The position numbers were made by a program, and so were the translations under genes. A stretch of DNA of 38,173 nt from Candidatus Merdenecus merdavium (GTDB taxonomy: Bacteria; Bacillota; Clostridia; Lachnospirales; Lachnospiraceae), in contig DVLR01000139.1 of NCBI GenBank assembly GCA_018715425.1, positions 1-38,173 of the forward strand. Direction: 5' to 3'. Below are positions 2,800 to 15,665 of this stretch, in pieces. The notes under the pieces are model-generated. The model was not told the origin of the DNA. It saw only the letters and a list, made by a program, of their open reading frames with translations, and did no database searches. The stretch's first letter is position 1; each line of letters starts with the position of its first letter.

Positions 2800-3035
2800 T
2801 AATATAAAAAAGTAAAGAGACAGTGATAAAAGCTAAGATTCATCATTCTTATAAAGAGAGTCAATGGTTGGTGTGAATTGATAAAGAATAGAATTGTTCC
2901 ACTTTTAGAGTCGCCAGGATAACTGGAAGGTTGGTAACCTTTATCTTACTTCAAGAGACTATAATATTATTATAGTAATTTGGGTGGCAACGCGGATTCT
3001 TTCGTCCCATATAAAGGGAGGAAAGGATTTTTTTA
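2800..3035 (+). promoter_or_regulatory. T-box leader (tRNA-Ser responsive) with intrinsic terminator
   Basis: The T-box core AATTTGGGTGGCAACGCGG at 2977-2995 is close to AANNNGGGTGGNACCGCG. A terminator stem ATTCTTTCGTCCC / GGGAGGAAAGGAT (2996-3028) follows, then a T7 run. AGAGA-type stem I elements lie at about 2815-2870. It sits directly upstream of serS. The 5' boundary is approximate. Confidence 0.8.
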
Positions 3036-5510: not shown

Positions 5511-5584
5511 ATATGGATGATACCACAACTTTCCCTGAGCAAAGGTGATGGTTAAATAGGAAAAATTGAATAAAATGAATCATT

Positions 5585-5656
5585 GTCCTCTTAGTAAAAT
5601 GGATATTACGAGACCCTCCTAAGGTTTAAGTGCAGGTTCGATTCCTGCAGGGGACG
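5585..5656 (+). tRNA. tRNA-Arg (anticodon CCU)
   Basis: Cloverleaf folded by hand. Acceptor stem GTCCTCT/AGGGGAC, D stem GTAA/TTAC with a GG loop, anticodon stem AGACC/GGTTT. Anticodon loop is CT-CCT-AA (U33 present, A37). T stem GCAGG/CCTGC with loop TTCGATT. Discriminator is G. CCA is not encoded. Confidence 0.85.
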
Positions 5657-5668
5657 CTAGAATATTCA

Positions 5669-5861: not shown

Positions 5862-6079
5862 ATGGCATCAATCGTTAGACGAAAACGAAGTATTGTGTTG
5901 TGTATCATTACACAGATGAAAAGGGAAAAGCGAGTGCTAAGAAAAGAGATATCGAAACTGTTGAGTCGACTCCTAAGAAGGAAGAACCAACAGAGGAGGA
6001 TACAGCAGCACTTCTCACCAAATTATTACAGAATCCTGAAACAGCCAGTCTGCTAAAAGCGTTGGCGAAGAATCTTTAA
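5862..6079 (+). pseudogene. Tyrosine integrase remnant (frameshift plus large internal deletion)
   Basis: An SD AAAGGAG precedes the ATG. MASIVRRKRS is followed, after a 1-nt frame slip at about 5890, by YCVVYHYTDEKGK. This is the typical N-terminus of Firmicutes ICE/phage integrases (MASI.KR..SY.V.Y.Y.D..GK). Only about 72 codons remain. The remnant ends in an acidic/helical tail (...AALLTKLLQNPETASLLKALAKNL) like the C-terminal tails of such integrases. Confidence 0.6.
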
Positions 6080-6135: not shown

Positions 6136-6543
6136 TTATACGTCGTAACTCATTTTTTCTGGAATAGTTCCATCCTCTTGATATTTTTGAAATAGCCAAA
6201 ACAGTAAGTACCCTATCATAACATCCATTCCATTATCAAACGTTTTCCAGCAATTAGAACAGTTCGTTGTTTTTATTAGATCTGATTCAATCATTTTAGG
6301 ATAATCTACAGAAACAGGGATTCTTTTAGTTATGAGTTTCTTGCGACCACTTGGCATCTTCTTTATTTTTTCGTGTATCTCGGGTTCTATGAAACATTGC
6401 TTATCTATAACAATTTCACCATCATAAATATGCTCATAGTTTTTATATTTGTTTTCATTTAGATTGTATCCACCGTACAGATACATTACTGTTGAATCAT
6501 CTTCCAGAACCTTAACCGCCACTGCTCCGATACCACGACTCAT
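6136..6543 (-). CDS. Hypothetical protein (135 aa), no recognisable domain
   Basis: The ORF was trimmed to MSRGIG..., whose ATG lies 5 nt after GGAGGTG. It has its own terminator. No motif was recognised. Confidence 0.7.
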   Translation of the reverse strand: MSRGIGAVAVKVLEDDSTVMYLYGGYNLNENKYKNYEHIYDGEIVIDKQCFIEPEIHEKIKKMPSGRKKLITKRIPVSVDYPKMIESDLIKTTNCSNCWKTFDNGMDVMIGYLLFWLFQKYQEDGTIPEKMSYDV

Positions 6544-6677
6544 AAAAACACCTCCAACAATTACTTTAGATAATACAATTATAAACAATGATATTTACAT
6601 ATTCAATAGAATTAGAAACATTCAAATATCAAAGTAATATTTGAGAATATCAATATTATTTGCTATACTGTTTATGA

Positions 6678-6797: not shown

Positions 6798-6912
6798 GCA
6801 ATAAAATGAATCATTAAGGTTAAGGGCGTTGCTCCATTCGTATACAGTTTAATCAACAAGATGGACAATTACTTAAGGGAATATTATTGCGCCAGATTTT
6901 GAAGGAGACATT

Positions 6913-8388
6913 ATGTCAAAACAACTTACTTTAGGGATAACCAAGATTGGGGATTTACTCCTTGCAAATAGAATAACCAGAGATGAGCACAACAATCCGA
7001 TCCAAGGAGTGCAGTTAACTGTACCAGAGTATCAGCGACCTTACAAGTGGACCGCGAAAAATGCCAATCAGTTGTTGGATGATATTATCGGTGCGAAGAA
7101 TGAGAATAAGGAAGTGTATCGTATAGGTACGCTTATTCTGCATGTAGATGAGAAAAAAGATAACATTTACAATATTGTCGATGGACAGCAGAGGATAATA
7201 ACATTTACACTTCTTTTAAAAGCCATGGGGGAGACAGAAATTAATTTCTTAAAACAGGGTCTTTCCAACAATCAATACAATGCCTTCAATGTCCTGAATA
7301 ATTATCGTGGCTTTAAGAGGCGTGTGATGAACATGAAGGATGAAAAGGAGAAAGGGGATTTACTTGATTATATTAAGAATAATTGTGAGTTGATTGTTGT
7401 ATCTACAGGTGATATATCTGAGGCATTCCAGTTCTTTGATTCGCAGAATGCACGTGGAAAGAAATTGTATCCGCATGATCTTCTGAAAGCGTATCACTTG
7501 CGAGAGATGAATAATCTTGATGTTAGTGAAACGGAAAGGATTGTAAAGATTTGGGAAGATATGAATCAAAAGGATCTTGCAAATCTTTTCCAAGAGTATT
7601 TGTACCGTATGAAAGAATGGATTAAGGGTAATAGGTCATATAGATTAGATGAAAATAATATGAGAATGTTCAAGGGTGTTACCAAGAATAATAATTATCC
7701 GTATGCAAAGTTTTATAAGGGGGCATATGCGTATGCAGATTATCTGAATCAATCATCAGTTCCATTTGTAACGGGAATGGTTGAAATGAATCCATTTCAA
7801 ATAGACACAACTATTATTGCAGGTAAAACTTTTTTTGAGTATGCAAAGCACTATTTTGATGTCCTAGCGGATATCAGGAACAACGATAAATATGAAGGAT
7901 ATTTCATTAATGACAACGATATTGTAAAGACATTGAATAATAGGAAGTATCGCAACGGTGTTGGAAATGGTATTGCTAGAAAAATGTTTGATACGGTAAT
8001 ATTACTTTATGTAGATCGTTTTTGCTCGGTGCCCCCATCCAAAGTAGACTCGGAATTGTTAGATCAGTTTGTTGTGTATGCATTTGTTTGGGCATATTCT
8101 ATGCGTGCGCAGTACAAGAATGTAGGATGGCAGGTGGCTGAAAATTATATTATGGGTACTTCATCAAAAGGTGCGATAAACTCTTTTAACATCTACAAGG
8201 TTATTGCAGAAGCAGATTCTCCGATTGTGGTTTTAAATTGTTTATCTGATAAAGTGCAGTATTTACCTGATAGCAGGATTGTTGCAAATAAGGACGGTCT
8301 GGGAGATAAAGAGAATGGTGCGTACATAAATTATCTTGATCATTTTAAAGAAAATGGATTTTGGAAGGGAGATACGTCCAATGAGTAA
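6913..8388 (+). CDS. DUF262-family protein (GmrS-like ParB/Srx-fold NTPase domain), no nuclease domain recognised
   Basis: 491 aa with an SD GAAGGAG. DUF262 motifs are VPEYQRPYKW, IVDGQQRIITFTLLL and FFDSQNARGKKLYPHDLLKAYHL. The C-terminal region of about 300 aa has no motif I can name. Confidence 0.85.
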   Translation: MSKQLTLGITKIGDLLLANRITRDEHNNPIQGVQLTVPEYQRPYKWTAKNANQLLDDIIGAKNENKEVYRIGTLILHVDEKKDNIYNIVDGQQRIITFTLLLKAMGETEINFLKQGLSNNQYNAFNVLNNYRGFKRRVMNMKDEKEKGDLLDYIKNNCELIVVSTGDISEAFQFFDSQNARGKKLYPHDLLKAYHLREMNNLDVSETERIVKIWEDMNQKDLANLFQEYLYRMKEWIKGNRSYRLDENNMRMFKGVTKNNNYPYAKFYKGAYAYADYLNQSSVPFVTGMVEMNPFQIDTTIIAGKTFFEYAKHYFDVLADIRNNDKYEGYFINDNDIVKTLNNRKYRNGVGNGIARKMFDTVILLYVDRFCSVPPSKVDSELLDQFVVYAFVWAYSMRAQYKNVGWQVAENYIMGTSSKGAINSFNIYKVIAEADSPIVVLNCLSDKVQYLPDSRIVANKDGLGDKENGAYINYLDHFKENGFWKGDTSNE

Positions 8389-10402
8389 ACTACCACTTAG
8401 TGAGGAAACAATTGAAGAATTGTGCAATGGTTCAAAACATGTGACGTATGAAATCCCTATTTACCAGAGAAATTATGCATGGGAAAAAGATGAGATTTCC
8501 GCTTTGGTTCATGATGTATATGATGCTTTTTGCAAGAATGGACAGGCAAAGTATTATATTGGAACTTTAGTATCATATAAAAGAGATGATGATATCTATG
8601 AGGTGATTGATGGACAGCAACGACTCACAACAATAAACATCTTAATGCATGTTTTTGGCCAAAATGTAAAGAATAAGCTGACATATCGTGCAAGAAAGAA
8701 ATCTAATAAGACACTTCAAGGGATGGATAACTTTGATAGACTCGAAGAAAAAGATCAAGGAATTGTGAAAGGGCATGGTTTTGCAAAAGCAGCAATAGAA
8801 GAACTTAACTTCAACAACAGTACCAGAATTACGGAGGAGAATTTTATTCGCTTTTTCAAAGAAAAAGTATGCATTATCCATTATAAAGTGCCAAGGGATA
8901 TTGATCTGAATCATTACTTTGAAATTATGAATTCAAGAGGAGAGCAACTCGAAAAACATGAAATAGTGAAGGCTCGTCTTATAAGCGAATTTACAGAAGA
9001 AGAAGAGAAGATATCAATACGCAAATTCAATTACATCTGGGAATCCTGTAGCATGATGAATGTGTATGTTCAGCAGAAATGCAAGAATAAAGCTGTGTTT
9101 GGAACAGACTACAGCAGTTTTATCATTTATGACTTCGATGATATAGAAATGGATGAAGAAGAGCGAGAAGACGGTGAGATATCCATCGAAAAACTACTGG
9201 AAGAAGATTCTCCAGAAGGGGTTCGTGATCAGGATGATATAGCAGATACCTTTCAACCGATTATCGATTTTCCAAACTTTCTACTAATTGTGCTTAAAAT
9301 TACAAGGACCATGGAAGAAAAGAAATTTGTTCCAACAGAATTCAATCTAGACGATAAGGAATTGATTAATGAGTTTGATAAGCTGGACAATAGTTTGGTT
9401 AAGACATTTGCATTTAATCTAATAAAGGCAAAATATTTTTTGGACAATTATATCGTGCATCATTCTAATGAGGATGATGTTGAGGGGAATAATCCGTGGT
9501 TGCTGGAAAAATGGAAAAAAGAAGGAAAGAATGGATATAACAAGAACCTCGTAGAAGGGAATAAGAACATACAAGATAAACTGGTTCAGCTGCTTTCTAT
9601 GTTTGAAGTTTCTTTTACAGCTAGACAACGAAAAAACTATCTCTTTTATTGTTTATTATTTCTCTTCAAACAAGATAGATTTGATGCCAATGAATATTGT
9701 GCATTTGTTGAAAAGTTAGCGCAGAAGTATATGTATGATGTATATCTGGATTCAGGTGCGCTAAATGATAGGAATATACCAAAACCTGGTAGCTTCGATG
9801 AAGCGATTCTAATGAATGGTGAGCTTCAAGTGGAATGCAGTAAAAAAACAAGTACATTTTCAGAGGTCTATGGAGAGGGAACGAGTGTAAGTAATGGAAT
9901 TCCATTATTCGTATTTAATTATATGGATTATAAGATCTGGAAGAAATACGCAGAGGAGTTACGTGGTGAAAAAGTAAAAGAAGGATCTGCAGAACGTAAA
10001 ATATTCTTTGCGCATCTTGGATGTAGCGACTTCGGATTAGATGCCTTTAGAGCATTCTATTTTTCCAGAACCAGAAGAAGTTTGGAACATTATTATCCGC
10101 AAGCCAATGTAGGATTAAGTCATGATAGATTAGATGTTGCAAAGATTAATTGCTTTGGCAACTTTGCAATGATTGGCAGCGAGGCCAATAGTGCTGGATC
10201 TAATTGGAGTCCGATTGTAAAAGTCGGACGTTATCTGGATACTTCACGGAAGATTGCACCTATAAGTGTTGCATCACTTAAATTCATGGTGATGATGCAG
10301 ATGTGCAAGGATAATGAGAACATTAGAGATTCTGGAGAGGAGTGGAAATTTGAAGATATAAAGAAACACCAAGAGAAGATGGTTGCGCTGTTAATGGAGT
10401 AA
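8381..10402 (+). CDS. GmrSD-like protein (DUF262 + DUF1524 His-Me finger nuclease domain), putative type IV restriction enzyme
   Basis: 673 aa counted from the ATG at 8381, with an SD GGAAGGGAG 10 nt upstream. It overlaps the upstream stop by 8 nt (ATGAGTAA). N-terminal motifs are IPIYQRNYAW, VIDGQQRLTTINIL and IMNSRGEQLEKHEIVKARL. The C-terminal segment SLEHYYPQ....NCFGNFAMIGSEANSAGSNW is typical of DUF1524. Confidence 0.85.
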   Translation: MSKLPLSEETIEELCNGSKHVTYEIPIYQRNYAWEKDEISALVHDVYDAFCKNGQAKYYIGTLVSYKRDDDIYEVIDGQQRLTTINILMHVFGQNVKNKLTYRARKKSNKTLQGMDNFDRLEEKDQGIVKGHGFAKAAIEELNFNNSTRITEENFIRFFKEKVCIIHYKVPRDIDLNHYFEIMNSRGEQLEKHEIVKARLISEFTEEEEKISIRKFNYIWESCSMMNVYVQQKCKNKAVFGTDYSSFIIYDFDDIEMDEEEREDGEISIEKLLEEDSPEGVRDQDDIADTFQPIIDFPNFLLIVLKITRTMEEKKFVPTEFNLDDKELINEFDKLDNSLVKTFAFNLIKAKYFLDNYIVHHSNEDDVEGNNPWLLEKWKKEGKNGYNKNLVEGNKNIQDKLVQLLSMFEVSFTARQRKNYLFYCLLFLFKQDRFDANEYCAFVEKLAQKYMYDVYLDSGALNDRNIPKPGSFDEAILMNGELQVECSKKTSTFSEVYGEGTSVSNGIPLFVFNYMDYKIWKKYAEELRGEKVKEGSAERKIFFAHLGCSDFGLDAFRAFYFSRTRRSLEHYYPQANVGLSHDRLDVAKINCFGNFAMIGSEANSAGSNWSPIVKVGRYLDTSRKIAPISVASLKFMVMMQMCKDNENIRDSGEEWKFEDIKKHQEKMVALLME

Positions 10403-10866: not shown

Positions 10867-10967
10867 ATTTTACCGATGCGAAAATAGTTTGTATAATAAA
10901 GAGGAACAGATGAACAAAGTGGCAGAAGACTATGTGGATGTAGTGACAGATGAGGAGATTTAGAACT

Positions 10968-13400: not shown

Positions 13401-13603
13401 ATTGAAAGACTAAAAAATAGAATTGCTTATGAAGGTATTACTAGATTCTTTCGTTTGGAAAATGAAAAAGTGAGGAATAAAATTTAAAAAAACGTATAAA
13501 AAATACTAAAACAGAGAAAAATATTGAAGAAATCATTGTTTTATGGTACCATTATAGTCATAATATGTAGTACAGGATGATAGATATAAGGAGAAGAATA
13601 AAG

Positions 13604-14998
13604 ATGAAAAGGCCTATTGTTCGTTTGTCATCATTACAATTGACGAATATAAAAAATGTAAAAAAAGGTATTATATATATGCCAAATACTACAAATAAAA
13701 TTTTATTAGCCGATAAAGCAGAAGTGCTGGGTATTTATGGACAAAATGGCTCAGGAAAAACTGCCATTGTTGATGCATTGTATTTTTTACAAAAAGTAAT
13801 GGTAGGAGCTAATCTTGATCATTCAATGGAAGATTACATTGATATGGATTCTAATAAGGCTGAAATTATGGCAGATTTCAATATTTTTATTGAAAACATA
13901 GTGTTTGAAGTTGGTTATAGACTTTATCTAAGCAGAGAAGAAAAAGAGGTTTTTATTAGTCGAGAAGTATTGAGTGTTGCAAAAAATGAAAATGGAAGTA
14001 GAACAAATAAGACAGCTTTTATGGACTATCAGAGAAAGTTAAAAGATTCTATTTTCAAACCAAAGAATAGGCTTGATGAAGTTGTTGAAGCGAATAAAGA
14101 AATAAAAACTGACTTGATTGTAGCACGTAAAATAGCTGAAAAAAGTAATTGTTCGTATATTTTTGGTGAAAGCAGTCGGGAAATTTTTTGTAGAGAATAT
14201 ACAAATGGTTTTAAACAATATTCCTTTATCATTTCTTCTTTGTTTGAATTTGCATTGAAAGACTTATTTGTAATCCGTAATACGCATTCAGGAGTAATTT
14301 CAGCCAATTTTGTCTTGCCTATGGCCTTTCGAATTGAAAATGATAGCGTTGGAGCCAAAGGAGATTTCACAGTGCCTTTGACAGAACCAATACTGGTTGA
14401 TGAAGAAAGAAAAAATATTCTGGAGACAATTGTAGAACAGATTAATATAGTCTTATATACAATTATTCCTGGTATTCAGGTAACTATTAAAAATTATGGA
14501 AAACAGTCATTGAACCATGGAGAACAGGGCTGGAGACTGGAATTAATGTCAAAGAGAGAGGGAATGAAAGAGATTCCAATCAGAATGGAGTCAGAGGGAA
14601 TTATCAAAATTATTTCCATTCTTAATGCACTAATACAGGCATTTGGGAATCCTTCAATTTGTCTAGTAATTGATGAACTTGATGCAGGAGTTTTTGAATA
14701 TATGTTGGGAGAATTGTTGGATATTTTCAAAAAAAGTGCAAAAGGACAATTGATTTTTACTTCCCATAATCTTCGTGCACTTGAAATGCTTGATAAGGAA
14801 AGTATTATGTTTTCCACTACGAACCCTAATAATCGTTATATTCATATGAAGAGTGTAAGAGAAAGTAATAATCTTCGCAATATGTATATTCGAAGCATTA
14901 CGCTTGGTGGTCAATCAGAAGAAATTTATGAAGAAACAGATAGTTTGAAGATTGCCAGAGCATTTAGAAAAGCGGGGCGAGGTGTTCGCAATGAGTAA
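13604..14998 (+). CDS. ABC-type ATPase (AAA_21/AAA_15-like; AbiLi/AriA-like)
   Basis: 464 aa counted from the ATG at 13604 (SD AAGGAG 10 nt upstream). Motifs are Walker A GIYGQNGSGKTAIVDAL, signature-like MESEGIIKI, Walker B CLVIDELDAGV and H-loop LIFTSHN. A long insertion lies between Walker A and the signature. Confidence 0.85.
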   Translation: MKRPIVRLSSLQLTNIKNVKKGIIYMPNTTNKILLADKAEVLGIYGQNGSGKTAIVDALYFLQKVMVGANLDHSMEDYIDMDSNKAEIMADFNIFIENIVFEVGYRLYLSREEKEVFISREVLSVAKNENGSRTNKTAFMDYQRKLKDSIFKPKNRLDEVVEANKEIKTDLIVARKIAEKSNCSYIFGESSREIFCREYTNGFKQYSFIISSLFEFALKDLFVIRNTHSGVISANFVLPMAFRIENDSVGAKGDFTVPLTEPILVDEERKNILETIVEQINIVLYTIIPGIQVTIKNYGKQSLNHGEQGWRLELMSKREGMKEIPIRMESEGIIKIISILNALIQAFGNPSICLVIDELDAGVFEYMLGELLDIFKKSAKGQLIFTSHNLRALEMLDKESIMFSTTNPNNRYIHMKSVRESNNLRNMYIRSITLGGQSEEIYEETDSLKIARAFRKAGRGVRNE

Positions 14999-15287
14999 GA
15001 AAAAAGTAATTGCAGTCATTGTAGAGGGACCTAGTGATGAGGCTGCATTGGGACCAATTTTGAAAGAGTACTTTTCGAGTGAAGAGATTCAGTTTGTAGT
15101 AGTTCATGGAGACATAACAACGAAAGATTATACTTCTGTAGATAATATACTTTCAAAGATCAATCATTTAATTGAATCAGTAAAACAAAAATACGGTTAT
15201 AATATAGATGATTTTATGAAAATTATACACATTACTGATATGGATGGCGTTTATTGTAATAATGCCATAGTAGAAGGAGATGTGTAA
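14991..15287 (+). CDS. TOPRIM-like (RloB/AbiLii-like) protein, N-terminal segment ending at an in-frame TAA
   Basis: 98 codons. The ATG overlaps the ATPase stop (ATGAGTAA), with an SD GAGGTG 6 nt upstream. It has the TOPRIM acidic motifs VIAVIVEGPSDE and IIHITDMDG. Confidence 0.75.
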   Translation: MSKKKVIAVIVEGPSDEAALGPILKEYFSSEEIQFVVVHGDITTKDYTSVDNILSKINHLIESVKQKYGYNIDDFMKIIHITDMDGVYCNNAIVEGDV

Positions 15288-15302
15288 GGAGTTCAGTATT
15301 AT

Positions 15303-15665
15303 TTGGATCGTATAGAAACGAAATATCCAGATTATTTAAATAGAAAACATACACAAAAAGCAAAAAATTTATTCAAATTATATTCTTCTGGAAAAATTAA
15401 GGGTGTCAGCTATAAAATATACTTTAATTCTTGTAATTTGGAGCATGTCCTTTTTAATGAATTGAAGGATTTTACAGATGATGAAAAAGAAGATCTGGCA
15501 GATGATTTTGCAGAAAAGTATGAAGGTAGGGTAGAGGAATTTATTGAATTTATATCCCAAGAAGATTTGATTGCCCCAGGTACTTTTAAACAAACTTGGA
15601 GATTTATTGAAAAGGAAAAACATTCATTAGAAAGATACACAAATATGCATTTGATCTTTAAGTAG
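15303..15665 (+). CDS. RloB-like protein, C-terminal segment (same frame as 14991-15287)
   Basis: 120 codons. The frame resumes 5 codons after the TAA, and only a TTG start is available. An AAGGAG (15286-15291) lies 11 nt upstream. The segment YKIYFNSCNLEHVLFNE resembles the RloB motif SNPCFE.WLLLH. Confidence 0.65.
   Translation: MDRIETKYPDYLNRKHTQKAKNLFKLYSSGKIKGVSYKIYFNSCNLEHVLFNELKDFTDDEKEDLADDFAEKYEGRVEEFIEFISQEDLIAPGTFKQTWRFIEKEKHSLERYTNMHLIFK

Follow-up and report, generated by a model that had tools for sequence, protein, structure and literature searches.

The window, as we call the whole 38,173-nucleotide stretch analysed here, carries two consecutive intact genes on its forward (+) strand, to which all positions of the pair and its domains refer. 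The tgvA-like gene (6913..8388) encodes protein 1 (P1, 491 aa), which has a DUF262 and a DUF7834 domain and no nuclease domain. The tgvB-like gene (8381..10402) encodes protein 2 (P2, 673 aa), which runs from a DUF262 domain through a helical middle region to a DUF1524 His-Me nuclease. The two ORFs overlap by 8 nt (ATGAGTAA, 8381-8388). The junction (8363..8388) also includes a purine-rich, SD-like GGAAGGGAGA at 8363-8372, which falls inside the 3' end of gene 1, 8 nt ahead of the gene 2 ATG (8381-8383); the gene 1 TAA occupies 8386-8388. These ORF coordinates and sequence elements bear out the original prediction of an 8-nt overlap with the second gene's SD inside the end of the first.

P1 begins with a DUF262 (ParB-like NTPase) domain (7000..7497, residues 30-195; Pfam GmrSD_N PF03235, E 2.9e-30) that includes a DGQQR motif (7180-7194, residues 90-94). 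Residues Q41, R42, D90-R94, F175 and N179 are invariant among 37 homologues, and the QR, DGQQR and FxxxN motifs are intact. The roughly 300-aa C-terminus of P1 had been described as unrecognisable, but Pfam matches it to DUF7834 (7531..8262, residues 207-450; PF25202, E 1.4e-54). This TgvA-specific C-terminal domain is also found in Vibrio cholerae TgvA (PF25202, E 3.4e-38) and in TgvA homologues of Exiguobacterium, Tolumonas and Haemophilus. A search of the literature for DUF7834/PF25202 found nothing, a PDB sequence search with P1 gave no match, and DUF7834 has no solved structure. The AlphaFold2 model of P1 was confident for DUF262 and poor for residues 180-330 (mean pLDDT 69.6, pTM 0.45). 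Searching the PDB with this model in Foldseek returned significant matches only to SspE and DndI, with TM values of 0.25-0.31 that are uninformative for DUF7834. The idea that DUF7834 is a diverged copy of the helical middle/nuclease region of P2 was rejected, as hhalign detected nothing in common outside DUF262 (probability 0.2%); with such shallow profiles (Neff ~1.8) this is a weak negative.

P2 likewise opens with DUF262 (8411..8980, residues 11-200; PF03235, E 5.4e-34), with DGQQR at 8609-8623 (residues 77-81), and its family likewise shows no variation in the QR, DGQQR and FxxxN motifs. Its DUF1524/His-Me finger region (10004..10387, residues 542-669) gives a weak Pfam match to GmrSD_C/DUF1524, which at 20.8 bits falls under the 23-bit gathering cut-off. 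At the family level the nuclease call is firm: PF07510 is matched by 14 of 15 P2 family members (best E 6e-18), and the family profile aligns the nuclease segment with the nuclease motif of the solved DUF262 protein 20yv. None of E569, H570, Q574, G593, N594, N603, S604 and N608 varies across the 15 aligned family sequences; among them, H570 (10088-10090) and N603 (10187-10189) are catalytic-type residues. The H-to-N spacing is 31 residues both in the TgvB of Escherichia coli pLAO4 (H550/N581) and in that of V. cholerae (H571/N602). From motif and spacing, with pLAO4 TgvB as the bridge, we infer that P2 H570/N603 are equivalent to TgvB H571/N602. In P1 the Pfam search gave no match to PF07510 (DUF1524). 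The domain searches thus agree with the original prediction of DUF262 hallmarks in both proteins (two strong Pfam matches, DGQQR in each) and of a DUF1524-type His-Me finger in the second only.

The pair sits in a variable defence hotspot downstream of a tRNA-Arg(CCU) gene (5585..5657, +), a conserved anchor that is not part of the system; the related backbones L054, L079, L084 and L092, all of which lack tgvAB, have the same tRNA after DUF3881. Besides this tRNA, the flanks of the pair contain short ORFs without domain matches and a single intact ORF, of 150 aa and unknown function, and the variable region reaches as far as an AbiL module (13475-15664) that carries a nonsense codon. The earlier description of the pair as the one intact cargo in a decayed island holds only in part. 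As had been claimed, no DNA methyltransferase, specificity subunit or helicase was found within about 3 kb of the pair; the Meth_synt_2 gene at 10950 encodes an enzyme of the methionine synthase type rather than a DNA methylase. No hsd genes adjoin the pair, so the type I R-M setting known for some TgvAB systems is absent here, and no ssp or dnd modification genes were found near it in the window.

The two-gene cassette is mobile. Nucleotide similarity to all relatives is restricted to 6912-10397 and ends at the two CDSs, and a relative with 78% identity is located in a Tn916-type mobile defence island. A search for att-type direct repeats matching the tRNA 3' end on either side of the island found none; the sole repeat of note is 16 nt long and links 5569-5584 to 6800-6815 as an exact match. 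Composition does not shift across the island (GC 0.29-0.38 throughout). A candidate integrase N-terminal remnant at 5862-6079 was dropped for want of Pfam support. Scans for promoters and terminators gave match counts no higher than in shuffled sequence, and the promoter-like match at 6641-6669 is a consensus match only, of a kind no commoner than in shuffled sequence.

The genes also travel together elsewhere. All 16 genomic loci that could be assessed have a P2 homologue directly downstream of the P1 homologue; they belong to Clostridia, Bacilli, Bacteroidota, Acidobacteria, Actinobacteria and Proteobacteria, and this survey answers positively the question of whether orthologues of the first gene are consistently adjacent to a GmrSD-like gene. 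Plasmids show this direct adjacency too: those examined from Klebsiella and Aliarcobacter, and E. coli pLAO4. At each of the 15 junctions that could be measured, the genes either share 4-25 nt or are separated by no more than 7 nt, and the 8-nt overlap itself recurs in the Klebsiella plasmid pair and in the 78%-identity relative. Within the clade P1 is the better conserved protein (67% identity, with a pairwise mean of 71% for DUF7834, versus 60% for P2), and the most variable stretch is residues ~201-280 of P2.

Two-gene systems of this layout are known as TgvAB. The TgvAB of V. cholerae VPI-2 (VC1767/VC1766) is a two-protein type IV anti-phage restriction system that targets phages with glucosyl-hmC DNA, and its defence is glc-hmC-dependent (Vizzarro et al. 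2024, J Bacteriol, PMC11411939; Gomez & Waters 2024, bioRxiv 10.1101/2024.04.05.588314). Both genes are needed, neither protecting alone even when over-expressed, as are the DGQQR of both proteins and H571/N602 of TgvB, and the tgvA and tgvB ORFs overlap by 8 bp (PMC11411939; bioRxiv 10.1101/2024.04.05.588314). P1 aligns with V. cholerae TgvA at 25% identity over 349 aa (E 5e-21), across both domains. P2 aligns with V. cholerae TgvB at 23% over 384 aa (E 1e-25) and with pLAO4 TgvB at 22% over 703 aa, its full length. Cross-matches between A and B proteins are mostly confined to DUF262 (about 200 aa), whereas A-A and B-B matches reach further. Much closer is a published TgvA/TgvB homologue pair from Desulfotalea psychrophila LSv54, CAG37104.1/CAG37103.1 (Table S5 of Vizzarro et al. 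2024, PMC11411939), with 68% identity to P1 and 53% to P2 over the stored ~400 residues. CAG37104.1 also came up, as P0095, in our own search. By eye, the signatures IPxYQRNYAW and MNxRGEQLEKHE can be recognised as well in the TgvB homologues of Tolumonas, Haemophilus and Exiguobacterium listed in Table S5. DefenseFinder, a standard annotation tool, reports the system type "TgvAB"; PADLOC v2.0.0 (2023), which has no TgvAB model, matches the window pair to HEC-06, Orf5 and SspE, in N-terminal parts only.

We consider it very probable that the window pair is a two-protein restriction system of the TgvAB family, type IV (modification-dependent), likely acting as a complex in which P2 cuts modified DNA. 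TgvAB homology, the synteny of all 16 loci, the tight junction of all 15 and the nucleotide similarity ending at both CDSs together support a two-subunit, probably modification-dependent, defence module that would be inherited and selected as a unit. The two genes would be co-transcribed, with the 8-nt overlap and internal SD probably coupling translation of gene 2 to that of gene 1, and P1 and P2 would most likely work together in one complex. In both subunits, the DUF262 domain is predicted to bind or hydrolyse NTP and to sense modified (phage) DNA, which the P2 His-Me finger (H570, N594, N603) would then cut. Unmodified host DNA would be spared, and for that reason a methyltransferase would not be needed. 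This scheme combines directly observed homology, domain architecture, motif integrity, strict pairing, tight junction and cassette mobility with genetics from V. cholerae only; that the window pair is active, needs both subunits and forms a complex is expected by analogy. Its function and specificity are extrapolated, because the proteins have only 22-25% identity to the sole experimentally tested TgvAB.

These data bear on the reason why an enzyme with the full GmrSD-like make-up should need a partner that lacks a nuclease. One reading is that the pair is TgvAB-family by descent but P2 is self-sufficient, with P1 as an accessory: a regulator, or a decoy against IPI*-like phage inhibitors, an anti-inhibitor idea raised by the TgvAB authors themselves (PMC11411939). 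P2 does have the complete single-chain GmrSD architecture, and its single-chain relatives Eco94GmrSD, BrxU, HEC-06 and EF_B0059 function alone. We regard this as unlikely, given that in V. cholerae over-expression does not rescue either single gene and the TgvA DGQQR is required, and given the strict pairing in 16/16 loci and the stronger conservation of P1. The conservation pattern does not favour P1 as a fast-evolving specificity module. That P1 and its DUF7834 are more conserved than the nuclease subunit, and that the junction stays tight across phyla, are both easier to reconcile with an obligate stoichiometric complex than with a specificity adaptor that is optional.

The original prediction proposed that the nuclease-less DUF262 paralogue could be a new specificity or sensor subunit in a two-subunit architecture not known to be characterised. 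DUF7834, with no structure solved and no literature found, and the unexplained mechanistic contribution of TgvA lend this some appeal. Contrary to it, the first protein maps fully onto TgvA (DUF262+DUF7834), the architecture is published as TgvAB, catalogued in 1,341 genomes and included in DefenseFinder, the Desulfotalea orthologue pair stands in the published list, P1 evolves more slowly than P2, and a further two-gene system, GrwAB, has been published as well. On novelty this reading is refuted, and as a whole we hold it to be very improbable.

A phosphorothioate-sensing nuclease of the SspE/DndI kind seems equally improbable. The best solved-structure relatives by profile and fold are SspE, DndI (9jfl) and an unnamed DUF262 protein, and the PADLOC SspE matches point the same way. 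However, these matches cover the shared DUF262 and His-Me modules only, the window holds no ssp or dnd modification genes near the pair, and SspE and DndI are single-chain proteins without a DUF7834 partner. Least probable of all is a GrwAB-type system: it likewise has two DUF262 proteins, DUF1524 on one only and a need for both, but its nuclease-bearing gene comes first, where the window has the nuclease-less gene first, and GrwB has an extended multi-domain C-terminus that its authors distinguish from TgvA, where the window partner carries DUF7834. A classical GmrS/GmrD split or a single-chain GmrSD was rejected on the two DUF262 domains and the strictly linked DUF7834 partner. E. faecalis pTEF2 EF_B0058/EF_B0059 was rejected as a tested Firmicute pair, its upstream gene being a recombinase and only one protein having DUF262.

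Returning to the TgvAB assignment, identity within the sub-clade of the window pair stays at 60-70% across Bacillota, Bacteroidota, Acidobacteria and Proteobacteria, yet is only 22-25% to the tested V. cholerae system. Tentatively, and somewhat against the balance of probability, the DNA modification recognised by the sub-clade may be neither glucosyl- nor arabinosyl-hmC but another, such as one found in gut phages; the highly conserved DUF7834 subunit may then be a core mechanistic part, such as a nuclease activator or clamp, rather than a specificity add-on.

The window pair resembles V. cholerae TgvAB in gene order, with the nuclease-less gene first; in architecture, TgvA being DUF262+DUF7834 and TgvB DUF262+linker+DUF1524; in the DGQQR motif of each protein, the H and N residues of the His-Me finger and the 8-bp ORF overlap; and in needing no cognate methyltransferase. 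It differs in sequence, with only 25% (A) and 23% (B) identity, and in context: V. cholerae TgvAB is embedded between hsdS and hsdR (hsdMS-hsdR), whereas the window pair stands alone beside a tRNA-Arg gene in a Clostridia-type gut bacterium. Embedding in hsd is not a defining feature of TgvAB, because the published homologue survey counted 1,341 stand-alone pairs against 79 embedded in type I R-M (PMC11411939). The Desulfotalea pair has the same architecture and belongs to the same sub-clade, and differs in phylum and genomic context. Single-chain members of the GmrSD family (Eco94GmrSD, BrxU, SspE, HEC-06, EF_B0059) share the DUF262-linker-DUF1524 layout and catalytic motifs of P2, but they act alone, whereas P2 is strictly linked to a DUF262+DUF7834 partner gene. 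GrwAB of WASA-lineage V. cholerae, a two-gene GmrSD-like system with broader targets including 7-deazaguanine-modified DNA (PMC12137116), is set apart by its description (gene order, partner C-terminus) and by that broader target range. The architecture is already known, published and named TgvAB, and the window pair is an ordinary additional member of it. As a discovery its value is low, TgvAB being published, catalogued in >1,000 genomes and present in a standard annotation tool; as an example it has modest value, showing a cassette of this type away from any R-M operon, in the genome of a Clostridia-type gut bacterium.

The window carries two open reading frames on the same strand, gene 1 at 6913..8388 (P1, 491 aa) and gene 2 at 8381..10402 (P2, 673 aa when read from the ATG at 8381). 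At their junction, AATGAGTAAA (8380-8389), gene 2 starts (ATG, 8381-8383) before gene 1 has stopped (TAA, 8386-8388), giving an overlap of 8 nt; a GGAAGGGAGA element lies within gene 1 at 8363-8372. Pfam searches placed a GmrSD_N/DUF262 domain in both P1 (E 2.9e-30) and P2 (E 5.4e-34), and a GmrSD_C/DUF1524 match in P2 only, a weak one at 20.8 bits (cut-off 23). The overlapping frames, the element inside gene 1 and this distribution of domains had all been described in the original prediction and are real. The C-terminus of P1, which it had left as unknown, is a known Pfam domain, DUF7834 (PF25202; residues 207-450, E 1.4e-54).

This architecture is that of TgvAB, described from the VPI-2 island of Vibrio cholerae (Vizzarro et al., 2024, J Bacteriol, PMC11411939; Gomez & Waters, 2024, bioRxiv 10.1101/2024.04.05.588314). 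There, TgvA (VC1767) carries DUF262 only and TgvB (VC1766) carries DUF262 and DUF1524, and the two frames overlap by 8 bp. Neither gene protects on its own, even when over-expressed, and defence is abolished by DGQQR substitutions in either protein and by TgvB H571A and N602A. The system acts against T-even phages, defence being lost when hmC is not glucosylated, and a survey of 41,142 genomes counted 1,341 stand-alone homologue pairs (PMC11411939; 10.1101/2024.04.05.588314). We found that V. cholerae TgvA (its first 399 aa, from Table S5, the homologue list of Vizzarro et al.) has the same GmrSD_N plus DUF7834 arrangement as P1 (DUF7834 E 3.4e-38), as do its homologues in Exiguobacterium, Tolumonas and Haemophilus. 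P1 aligned with V. cholerae TgvA over 349 aa spanning both domains (25% identity, E 5e-21) and P2 with TgvB over 384 aa (23%, E 1e-25), while cross-matches between A and B proteins mostly stayed within the ~200 aa of DUF262. E. coli plasmid pLAO4, with the gene order hsdM-hsdS-tgvA-tgvB-hsdR, encodes proteins 53% and 48% identical to V. cholerae TgvA and TgvB; P2 matched its full-length TgvB over 703 columns (22%, E 9e-24). Much closer is a Desulfotalea psychrophila pair listed as TgvA/TgvB in Table S5 (CAG37104.1/CAG37103.1; PMC11411939), 68% identical to P1 and 53% to P2, respectively. CAG37104.1 is identical with P0095, a protein recovered in our own P1 homologue search.

The nuclease region of P2 is sound, judged from its family. 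PF07510 was matched by 14 of 15 family members (best E 6e-18), and residues E569, H570, Q574, G593, N594, N603, S604 and N608 are invariant in an alignment of 15 sequences that takes in the Klebsiella, Aliarcobacter and pLAO4 proteins. The family profile aligned this segment to the EH..PQ...GN...ENSS..N of the solved DUF262 nuclease 20yv. Since the H-to-N spacing is the same in pLAO4 TgvB (H550/N581) and V. cholerae TgvB (H571/N602), P2 H570 and N603 are likely the counterparts of H571 and N602, by way of pLAO4.

Of 8,000 candidates scored in the P1 homologue search, 6,029 matched at E<1e-5, and the top 120 (63-88% identity; Lachnospiraceae, Clostridium, Butyrivibrio, Accumulibacter, Desulfotalea and Syntrophales) all carried PF03235 and PF25202. 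A genome scan gave 18 loci, including Clostridia, Oscillospiraceae, Sporolactobacillus, Myroides, Prevotella, Paludibacteraceae, Acidobacteria, Eggerthellaceae, Enterobacterales and Accumulibacter. The consistent adjacency for which the original prediction had suggested a survey was borne out: wherever the flank could be assessed (16 loci), a P2 homologue lay immediately 3' of the P1 homologue; the other two loci are remnants. At all 15 measurable junctions the genes overlapped by 4-25 nt or were separated by at most 7 nt, often with a GGAGG-like element within gene A. The examined Klebsiella plasmid, among ~900 matched by P1 at about 30% identity, carries this pair too, its genes overlapping by 8 nt; a pair on an Aliarcobacter plasmid overlaps by 11 nt. 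Two loci appear to carry the cassette in decayed form. In Prevotella bivia (L017, 6001-6627), P1 residues 2-146 and P2 residues 619-671 are ~30 nt apart, indicating an internal deletion, and in Accumulibacter contiguus (L013, 6001-9407) both genes match only as several shifted pieces and may be frameshifted. On Aliarcobacter cibarius pACIB (L020, 1633-9251), the pair overlaps the genes on either side, which encode a PD-(D/E)XK nuclease (upstream) and a UvrD helicase (downstream), and a Sir2 gene is nearby; together these may make up a larger, composite defence operon.

Mean pairwise identities were computed over nine pairs of the clade (window 6913-10402 against the L001-L025 pairs). P1 averaged 67% (DUF262 70%, DUF7834 71%) and P2 60% (DUF262 64%, middle 52%, His-Me 67%), P2 residues ~201-280 being least conserved (27-47%). 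The TgvA-like protein was consistently the better conserved, so the nuclease-less subunit is not a decaying paralogue; nor, on these identities, is it obviously a fast-evolving specificity module. That the clade recognizes a different target modification, with a core mechanistic role for DUF7834, is a tentative proposal that we consider somewhat unlikely.

The window is part of a metagenome assembly and opens with parA-parB-DUF4446, an ordinary T-box leader (2814-3012; Rfam RF00230, 100.7 bits) upstream of serS, and DUF3881, the chromosomal origin-proximal backbone of a Clostridia-type gut bacterium. Directly after DUF3881 lies tRNA-Arg(CCU) (5585-5657). Both tgvAB and the metE-like gene (at 10950 in the window) were absent, up to 8 kb downstream, from 38 related serS-DUF3881 backbones (55-63% identical). 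DUF3881 followed by this tRNA is kept in several of these tgvAB-less backbones (L054, L079, L084 and L092), so the tRNA delimits a variable defence hotspot on one side. An AbiL-like two-gene module further along (13475-15664) includes a 473-aa ATPase (13577-14998) matching PADLOC AbiLi (E 2.1e-27). It is 85.6% identical in nucleotides to L084 10499-12688, at the same position, against only 67-70% for the backbone genes there, suggesting that the module recently entered the same hotspot by horizontal transfer. Its second gene (14952-15665) has an in-frame stop at 15285-15287 in the window; the L084 copy encodes 237 aa and is 86% identical. Given the tgvAB-less backbones, the shared tRNA and the AbiL module, the post-tRNA region is a variable defence hotspot in which tgvAB is one intact cassette. 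With every relative, the window shared nucleotide similarity only over 6912-10397, precisely the extent of the two coding sequences. Among well-assembled relatives, the closest (78% identity) carries the cassette within a mobile defence island with Tn916-type integrase/Xis, TnpV, Abi_2, IS3 transposase, PLD-helicase and NUDIX genes. GC content did not differ between the tgvAB region and its flanks, and the short flanking ORFs gave no domain matches. Between the tRNA and gene 1 is an intact 150-aa ORF on the minus strand (6136-6588); neither Pfam nor PADLOC matched it, and none of the related loci has a counterpart beside tgvAB. The 16-nt sequence AATAAAATGAATCATT is repeated exactly and in direct orientation, at 5569-5584, abutting the tRNA 5' end, and at 6800-6815, some 100 nt before gene 1, and may have been left behind by insertion or recombination.

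Altogether, the best-supported reading is that the pair encodes a TgvAB-type modification-dependent restriction complex, its anatomy and homology being established here, and the defence interpretation of the original prediction is supported. By analogy with V. cholerae, to which identity is low, both subunits would be needed, would form a complex and would target modified DNA. The original claim of novelty is refuted on its own terms, as the first protein maps onto the published TgvAB architecture; "TgvAB" also appears in the DefenseFinder output of a 2026 paper. GrwAB, a second published two-gene system, differs from the window pair in its reversed gene order and its partner domain (PMC12137116). 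The two-gene architecture was thus already published in 2024 as TgvAB, and the window pair adds a member to it.
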